Shown in pieces: positions 24,001-27,000 of a DNA stretch of 64,000 nucleotides (its first letter is position 1; the number at the start of each line of letters is the position of its first letter). Position numbers: made by a program. This DNA is from Escherichia coli (GTDB lineage Bacteria > Pseudomonadota > Gammaproteobacteria > Enterobacterales > Enterobacteriaceae): assembly GCF_041248615.1 (NCBI RefSeq), contig NZ_CP158427.1. One strand, given 5' to 3'.

Positions 24001-27000
24001 TCCTCAGAATAATCCGGCCTGCGCCGGAGGCATCCGCACGCCTGAAGCCCGCCGGTGCACAAAAAAACAGCGTCGCATGCAAAAAACAATCTCATCATCC
24101 ACCTTCTGGAGCATCCGATTCCCCCTGTTTTTAATACAAAATACGCCTCAGCGACGGGGAATTTTGCTTATCCACATTTAACTGCAAGGGACTTCCCCAT
24201 AAGGTTACAACCGTTCATGTCATAAAGCGCCAGCCGCCAGTCTTACAGGGTGCAATGTATCTTTTAAACACCTGTTTATATCTCCTTTAAACTACTTAAT
24301 TACATTCATTTAAAAAGAAAACCTATTCACTGCCTGTCCTGTGGACAGACAGATATGCACCTCCCACCGCAAGCGGCGGGCCCCGACCGGAGTCGATTTA
24401 GTTACAACACTCAAACACAACCACCAGAAAAACCCAAGTCCAGCGCAGAACTGAAACCACAAAGCCCCTCTCCCATAACTGAAAAGCGGCCCCGCCCCGG
24501 CCCAAAGGGCCGGAACAGAGTCGCTTTTAATTATGAATGTTGTAACTACATCATCATCGCTGTCAGTCTTCTCGCTGGAAGTTCTCAGTACACGCTCGTA
24601 AGCGGCCCTCACGGCCCGCTAACGCGGAGATACGCCCCGACTTCGGGTAAACCCTTGTCGGGACCACTCCGACCGCGCACAGAAGCTCTGTCATAGCTGA
24701 AAGCGGGTATGGTCTGGCAGGGCCGGGGATGGGTAAGGTGAAATCTATCAATCAGTACCGGCTTACGCCGGGCTTCGGCGGTTTTACTCCGGTATCATAT
24801 GCAACAACGGAGTGCCGCCTTCCATGCCGCTGACGCGGCATCTCTAACCTTCACTCTTGACCATGTGAATGACAATCATTATTGTTTGTGTGGTAATGGG
24901 ATAGAAAGTAATGGATAGAAAAAGAACAAAATTAGAGTTGTTATTTGCATTTATAATAAATGCCACCGCAATATATATTGCATTAGCTATATATGATTGT
25001 TTTTTTAGAGGAGAGAATTTTTTATCCATGCATACATTTTACTTCTCTGCATTAATGTCTGCAATATGTTACTTTATTGATGATAATTATTATTCAATAT
25101 CCGATAAGATAAAAAGGAGAGCATATGAGAACTCTGACTCTAAATGAGTCAGACCGGAGATATCCACTTTAGACTGAGATGCGTCAGAGGAACCCAGATA
25201 AATAGTGTCATCACCAGTACCGGTACCGGTACCGGTACTCACAGCCCCGCTGTATTTGCCGCCACTGAGGAATACCTTTTCTTGATTCTTTACGGTGGTA
25301 CGTAAGTACTCCATTTTCGTACAGGCTCTCTTCCGCTTCCTCGTCGATTCGCTCACTACGTTCGGTCATCGATTTGCGGCGAGCAGTGCCACCTTTCGCA
25401 TATCATTGACGATCCCGATTTGAGCCAGAGAGCTGAGGTCTAATGGAGCGGAATCGTACGAGAGTGAATCAATTGTATGATATATAAATATTCTAATTGG
25501 TATAGAAAATGCTATTTAAAATATTTTTTATCTAAAAACGACATTTAACGGACAGTTTTGTCTGGTAATCGATTTTTCCGACGTTTATTTTTTTGCTAAC
25601 TGTACGTTTTCGTATGGTTAGCCCCCTGTCCCCATCTACCGAGTGGAAGTTCTGGGTACACGCTCGTAAGCGGCATATGTTGGTGACATATACGTAGTAA
25701 TGACAAGGTGATAAATGGCACAGGTTAATACGCGTTTAAGAATCGACGCTGAACTGAAGGATGCTTTTATGGCCGTTGTAAAAGCATGGGCCGTAGCGGC
25801 TCTTAATTAATCCGGAAATAAGTGATCTATAAGGCACTGTTGCAAAGTTAGCGATGAGGCAGCCTTTTGTCTTATTCAAAGGCCTTACATTTCAAAAACT
25901 CTGCTTACCAGGCGCATTTCGCCCAGGGGATCACCATAATAAAATGCTGAGGCCTGGCCTTTGCGTAGTGCACGCATCACCTCAATACCTTTGATGGTGG
26001 CGTAAGCCGTCTTCATGGATTTAAATCCCAGCGTGGCGTTGATTATCCGTTTCAGTTTGCCATGATCGCATTCAATCACGTTGTTCCGGTACTTAATCTG
26101 TCGGTGTTCAACGTCAGACGGGCACCGGCCTTCGCGTTTGAGCAGAGCAAGCGCGCGACCATAGGCGGGCGCTTTATCCGTGTTGATGAATCGTGGGATC
26201 TGCCACTTCTTCACGTTGTTGAGGATTTTACCCAGAAACCGGTATGCAGCTTTGCTGTTACGACGGGAGGAGAGATAAAAATCGACAGTGCGGCCCCGGC
26301 TGTCGACGGCCCGGTACAGATACGCCCAGCGGCCATTGACCTTCACGTAGGTTTCATCCATGTGCCACGGGCAAAGATCGGAAGGGTTACGCCAGTACCA
26401 GCGCAGCCGTTTTTCCATTTCAGGCGCATAACGCTGAACCCAGCGGTAAATCGTGGAGTGATCGACATTCACTCCGCGTTCAGCCAGCATCTCCTGCAGC
26501 TCACGGTAACTGATGCCGTATTTGCAGTACCAGCGTACGGCCCACAGAATGATGTCACGCTGAAAATGCCGGCCTTTGAATGGGTTCATGTGCAGCTCCA
26601 TCAGCAAAAGGGGATGATAAGTTTATCACCACCGACTATTTGCAACAGTGCCAACACGGGCACCACTACGGAGTTACCGAACTGCCTGTACGACTGAGTG
26701 TCTGACACAGGAATGCGAAAAGGCCTGCCATCTACTTTTTCAAAACCCATAAGGCGCGCGCACTCTCGTGGAGTCAGCCTGCGGGGCCGATGCGCCTGAT
26801 TTTCTTCGTTCGCGAAGTCTGTTTCACCTGTGGCCATATCCCAGCCACGGTCTATCAGAATTTCAGACCCGTCTTTGTGATAGCGAGCAGAAAGCGTACG
26901 GGCAATGCTTTCTTTATTTTCAGGATTAACGAGGCCAAAACCGAATCCGTTACCCTTAGCTGCGTGCTTTTTGGCGTAGTTATAGAGATACTCCCAGAGT

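Follow-up and report, generated by a model that had tools for sequence, protein, structure and literature searches.

We concluded, with a probability of about 0.93, that the short open reading frame (ORF) next to IS26 in the 64,000-nucleotide stretch of Escherichia coli DNA analysed here (the window) is a functionless remnant of yacA, which encodes the antitoxin of the type II toxin-antitoxin module yacAB, and that this gene had been cut before IS26 arrived. The yacAB module is already known, and the ORF is this known gene in a decayed state. The reading is based on nucleotide homology to yacA, on the lesions of the remnant, on an identical allele free of IS26 and on an IS26 target duplication whose two halves are now split.

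The ORF lies on the plus strand at 25715-25810, starts with ATG GCA CAG GTT AAT ACG CGT and contains 31 codons followed by TAA (translation, MAQVNTRLRIDAELKDAFMAVVKAWAVAALN); codons 1-22 are in the yacA frame and codons 23-31 are out of frame. The terminal repeat of IS26, GGCACTGTTGCAAA, begins at 25833, 22 bp past the ORF stop. The element occupies 25833-26652 with its transposase gene on the minus strand; an identical record annotates this gene as an IS26 family transposase. Beyond IS26, a minus-strand DNA cytosine methyltransferase gene was found with its 3' end removed by the element. The toxin gene yacB was absent from the whole window, where tblastn of YacB gave a best E value of 0.07 over 13 aa. 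The preliminary description of a short ORF with IS26 22 bp further on, no toxin gene after it and a missing toxin partner was accurate. In the window, FII repA is located upstream of the remnant, and repA, a variable block and yacA follow each other in this order in the intact loci (L001 and L002), the window and the records identical to it. Window positions 20000-32000 were 100% identical to p14408_1 of E. coli NRZ14408 (NZ_LT599826.1), an IncFIA/FIB/FIC(FII) multireplicon plasmid.

The homology to yacA was detected by blastn, megablast and base-by-base alignment. In blastn, the intact yacAB of pH1519-76 matched the plus strand of the window at 25688-25815 with 92.2% identity over 129 columns with one gap (E = 8e-49), covering the first ~34 of 89 codons and the leader before them, Shine-Dalgarno sequence included, and a second match of the intact locus was located in the oriR-side sequence at 24779-24844. 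Megablast of 25300-25832 against PLSDB matched about 2000 plasmids, mostly IncF; the part common to these matches was again window 25688-25815, which lay under genes annotated "yacA: type II toxin-antitoxin system antitoxin YacA". Identity to yacA was 92% in hundreds of IncF plasmids, and the 34 aa obtained after repair of the frame were 82% identical to YacA in ~1600 plasmids. A weak tblastn match of YacA at 11659-11742 fell within a 732-aa TraD-like coupling-protein ORF and was regarded as chance. In intact loci, FII repA is followed by yacA (270 bp, 89 aa), yacB (279 bp) and a 3'-5' exonuclease gene, and the start of yacB overlaps the stop of yacA. YacB matched Pfam ParE_toxin (PF05016, E = 4e-17) and, above its cut-off, TIGR02385 RelE_StbE; judged from these profiles, it is a toxin of the ParE/RelE superfamily.

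Among IncF plasmids the yacAB locus is common, with enrichment in ColV/ColBM plasmids (PMC4707298). Compared with yacAB of the R100/pWR100/ColV-type IncF plasmids, the remnant has the same position after FII repA/ori, leader, Shine-Dalgarno sequence and start codon, and shows 92% DNA identity over the first ~34 codons. In contrast to intact yacA, it keeps only 101 of 270 bp and has a frameshift, an early stop codon and a leader shortened by 26 bp, while the complete 89-codon frame and an adjacent or overlapping yacB are both missing.

The lesions were located by alignment with intact loci. At 25780-25783 (plus strand), a run of A is one base shorter than in two intact loci (GCAAAAAGC to GTAAAAGC), which shifts the frame after codon 22 and leaves the ORF tail AWAVAALN out of frame; the same 1-bp deletion was present in pSCZP1 and pLWY6J-2. 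In the ancestral yacA frame, CAA (Gln31) has become the nonsense codon TAA at 25804-25806 (plus strand). The homology to yacA ends at 25815, in codon 34 of 89 (...TTAATCCGG followed by AAATAAG...), and the remainder of yacA and all of yacB are lost 3' of this position. On the 5' side, the residual yacA upstream region GCGGCATATGTTGGTGAC was aligned at 25672-25688 (plus strand), and 26 bp of the intact loci (GATATCTGAAT..TTATATACTGTGT) are absent just 5' of 25689. This leader deletion takes half of the palindrome TATATAC-TGT-GTATATA, which is plausibly an operator.

The changes in the ancestral frame were M6T, S7R, A21V, A22V, D26G, N28S and Q31*, and all differences besides the nonsense codon are non-synonymous. 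Among 15 aligned members of the family (Escherichia, Salmonella, Brenneria and Erwinia), residues A22, D26, N28 and Q31 are invariant and A21 is nearly so. Over these few sites, the substitution pattern fits the prediction of relaxed selection on an inactive gene. Some of the differences could belong to an unsampled divergent allele and not to decay after inactivation, because intact yacA alleles in PLSDB come no closer than ~92% identity in nucleotides and 82% in amino acids. Scans for consensus promoters and terminators found none upstream of the remnant, and none upstream of intact yacA either.

The proposal that IS26 disrupted the module was not borne out. An insertion of IS26, or a deletion mediated by it, that truncated an intact antitoxin-toxin module at this site would fit the location of the element 22 bp after the ORF, the lack of a toxin gene downstream and the clear truncation of dcm by IS26 on the other side. 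However, the homology to yacA stops 17 bp short of IS26, and in pLWY6J-2 (NZ_MW808987.1), which is 100% identical over 25300-25832, there is no IS26 at this place. The 17 bp in question (25816-25832, plus strand) continue unbroken in pLWY6J-2 (...GTGATCTATAA-ACAAGAGCATTGATGACAGG...) into an AT-rich non-coding stretch, followed by IS200C and the afa adhesin operon. Together with this continuation they match a non-coding region of ColE1-like mobilizable plasmids of ~8 kb (mbeA, exc2) at ~81% identity. As the 17-bp tail belongs to the ColE1-like segment, the breakpoint of yacA is the junction with that segment, where a short ATTAA(T/C)C similarity hints at illegitimate recombination.

The element itself has the features of IS26: a length of 820 bp, 14-bp terminal inverted repeats (25833-25846 and 26639-26652) and an 8-bp target duplication, ATCTATAA. 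One copy of the duplication occupies 25825-25832, wholly outside yacA, and pLWY6J-2 reads ...ATCTATAA-ACAAGAGCATTG... uninterrupted by IS26, which places the insertion point in the ColE1-like segment and not in yacA. IS26 is not known to excise precisely. The frameshift and the nonsense codon are also independent of the element. Truncation by IS26 was therefore ruled out by pLWY6J-2, and we consider it very improbable; the decay of yacA is unrelated to IS26 save by proximity.

For the yacA relic, the following order of events is proposed. In an ancestor common to pLWY6J-2 and the pSCZP1 group, the yacAB module would have been cut at codon 34 of yacA by an illegitimate junction to the ColE1-like non-coding segment linked to IS200C and the afa adhesin operon, and this junction would have removed the remaining part of yacA and the whole of yacB. 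Loss of the toxin would have lifted selection on the antitoxin stub, which may then have gained the 1-bp deletion, the nonsense codon, the replacements at invariant residues and the 26-bp leader deletion. Later, IS26 would have inserted 17 bp past the breakpoint, duplicating ATCTATAA, and afterwards an inversion between oppositely oriented IS26 copies would have placed the truncated dcm-type methyltransferase gene alongside. The same frameshift and substitutions were found in pSCZP1, CP141198 and GZ2408C, where the remnant ends earlier (at ...GCCGTAGC followed by TTGAGCC...) and 9 more bp of the leader are missing. Since the frameshift is common to the pSCZP1 group, it is probably old within this small lineage, and the stub appears to be still eroding.

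The continuation ACAAGAGCATTG... was not found in the window, and was located elsewhere in the same plasmid, p14408_1. There it lies ~70 kb away, immediately preceded by another IS26 end and the same 8 bp, and the junction reads ...TTTGCAACAGTGCC, ATCTATAA, ACAAGAGC... (record position 101496). The pair of junctions, yacA'-ATCTATAA-IS26 in the window and IS26-ATCTATAA-ACAAGAG in the other place, marks a single IS26 insertion, and we infer that a later inversion between two IS26 copies of opposite orientation separated the halves of its duplication. Assemblies are well known to go wrong at IS26 repeats, and the inversion, which was read from one deposited assembly whose record is flagged linear, could instead be an assembly artefact across the IS26 repeat. 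The arrangement thus implies either an IS26-bounded inversion of ~70 kb in p14408_1 or a misassembly across IS26.

Other features around the IS26 copies were also recorded. Outside the window, at NZ_LT599826.1 97000-108000 (L006), the other half of the duplication adjoins an IS26-mph(A)-mrx-mphR module and the IS200C-afa operon. The window contains a second IS26 copy at 52151-52970, which has GAGTAAAC on one side and CCCTCGGC on the other; these differing 8-bp flanks mean that no simple target duplication is present, and they point to further IS26-mediated rearrangement. Its left flank resembles the end of a blaTEM/Tn2-type sequence. The methyltransferase gene next to the first IS26 copy (26653-28049, minus strand) is of the Dcm/EcoRII type, has lost its 3' end to IS26 and has an ORF that reads into the element. 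Past this gene are a restriction endonuclease fragment, IS5 and IncN-like kikA/H-NS-type genes, and the stretch from the methyltransferase gene onwards is of foreign, IncN-like origin and meets the F backbone at IS26. A hybrid outward promoter reading from the IS26 end into the antisense strand of the remnant was looked for by eye and by scan, and no convincing -10 element was seen.

Upstream of the remnant, a block of ~830 bp (24842-25671) is located between the FII oriR-side sequence (24779-24841, 95% identical to pH1519-76) and the yacA leader. The direct repeat GCGGCAT (24835-24841 and 25672-25678) flanks this block, whose place is taken by a different sequence in other IncF plasmids. Inside the block are an AT-rich ORF of 78 aa at 24911-25147, with the RefSeq name 'colicin transporter', and, in non-coding or ORF-poor sequence at 25213-25238, the hexanucleotide tandem repeat (ACCGGT) x 4.3. 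On the minus strand at 25600-25637, the reverse complement reads GGGGACAGGGGGCTAACCATACGAAAACGTACAGTTAG, which we take to be similar to the 38-bp terminal inverted repeat of a Tn3-family (Tn1000-like) element. In pSCZP1 (L005 2961-3054), a second facing repeat is found 28 nt off, and the 29-nt arms, which are 76% complementary, make up a very small IR-IR remnant or MITE-like unit; only the right-hand repeat is present in the window.

No function is expected for the stub, because it lacks both the second ribbon-helix-helix (RHH) helix and the entire C-terminal half and its toxin partner is gone. With the toxin gone, there would be nothing to neutralise and no selection to keep the stub. Toxin binding resides in the C-terminal half of related antitoxins. 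The C-terminal half of YacA gave a weak PaaA2-like match in PDB (E = 0.22), and toxin binding by this half is our assumption, made by analogy with PaaA2. The 31-aa peptide could still be made, since the Shine-Dalgarno sequence (AAGGTGA) and the ATG are retained in the remnant.

The ORF might accordingly be viewed as a functional small gene, encoding either an orphan antitoxin peptide that neutralises or titrates YacAB of co-resident plasmids, or a regulator. The retained translation start is in line with this, as are the presence of an identical ORF in two plasmids and the discussion of orphan antitoxins in the literature (PMC7354431). However, only residues 1-22 of the product are YacA-like, the tail differs in pSCZP1 (28 aa) and so is not conserved, half of the upstream palindrome is deleted, and the 31-aa product has no Pfam match. 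In addition, the remnant was found in only ~5 closely related records of ~93,000. The same ORF thus occurs elsewhere with no toxin gene only in a trivial sense, as these close relatives share the lesions by descent. We consider a function of this kind very improbable, too. The same holds for a 'poison subunit' role in plasmid competition, in which the 31-aa peptide, with the YacA beta-strand and first helix in it, would pair with a co-resident IncF YacA and disturb its repressor or antitoxin function.

The likeness of the ORF to RelB/DinJ antitoxins, from which the preliminary description started, was examined with profile searches. The 31-aa ORF alone reached 13.7 bits (E = 0.056) against TIGR02384 and had no match in the Pfam scan. 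Intact YacA matched TIGR02384 (RelB_DinJ) over residues 1-44 with 24.8 bits (cut-off 45.65; E = 1.9e-5) and PF04221 with 14.6 bits (cut-off 22.4), so that neither the intact protein nor the 31-aa ORF reached the curated cut-offs of the RelB/DinJ family. A conceptually repaired fragment of 35 aa, which is a sequence of our own construction, scored 24.1 bits on PF04221. Weak Pfam matches of intact YacA were to RHH_1, RelB, RHH_9, DUF6290 and CcdA. All 15 YacA relatives matched TIGR02384 over residues 1-44 (best E = 1.1e-5, all sub-threshold), and Pfam matches among them were to CcdA (14/15), RelB (13/15), DUF6290 (12/15), RHH_1 (11/15) and RHH_9 (9/15). The RHH-like N-terminal motif had been recognised soundly.

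Sequence and profile searches of PDB gave weak matches only, with an enrichment of RHH proteins; the profile search returned CopG-family RHH proteins, DinJ, RelB, PutA-RHH and ArtA with E values of only 0.04-1.5. RefSeq labels some variants "CopG family ribbon-helix-helix protein". An AlphaFold2 monomer model of YacA, built from the 15-sequence alignment, was mediocre (pLDDT 67); it placed helices at 12-23 and 29-61, where an RHH fold expects them, with no N-terminal strand, and Foldseek of this model against PDB returned noise only (E > 6). YacA resembles RelB/DinJ (TIGR02384, PF04221), CopG/RHH_1, CcdA and ParD-like proteins in its N-terminal ~44 residues, with the motif xLRIDxELKxxF, and resembles RelB/DinJ systems in having a partner toxin, YacB, with a RelE/ParE fold. 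All of these matches stayed below the curated cut-offs, and the C-terminal half of YacA bears no close resemblance to any RelB/DinJ model. In our reading, this weak but consistent sequence evidence places YacA in the RHH clan as a distant relative of RelB/DinJ; it is an orthologue of neither RelB nor DinJ. The fragment was thus correctly seen as the N-terminal part of a type II antitoxin, but its identity is yacA of yacAB and not relBE or dinJ-yafQ. A chance ORF with a fortuitous resemblance to an RHH antitoxin, as its very small size and the poor scores of the ORF alone could suggest, has practically no probability and was ruled out by the nucleotide homology to yacA, in addition to the syntenic position downstream of FII repA.

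Natural inactivation of the yacAB locus is known from Shigella pINV (PMC9455713, PMC7354431). In Shigella flexneri pINV/pWR100, as in the window, the locus was inactivated by a frameshift (PMC9455713, PMC7354431); in pINV, yacB is frameshifted and yacA is intact, whereas in the window yacB is gone and yacA is a stub.

The remnant is a pseudogene left over from a plasmid addiction module that is well known, and it carries little biological weight. For annotation, the appropriate label is yacA pseudogene, and neither a gene nor a relBE disrupted by IS26 should be entered here. The remnant is further useful as a lineage marker, which links the mcr-era multireplicon F plasmid p14408_1 to afa-carrying F plasmids such as pLWY6J-2 and pSCZP1, and as a rearrangement record, in which loss of yacAB would have been followed by IS26 insertion and then by an IS26-bounded inversion.
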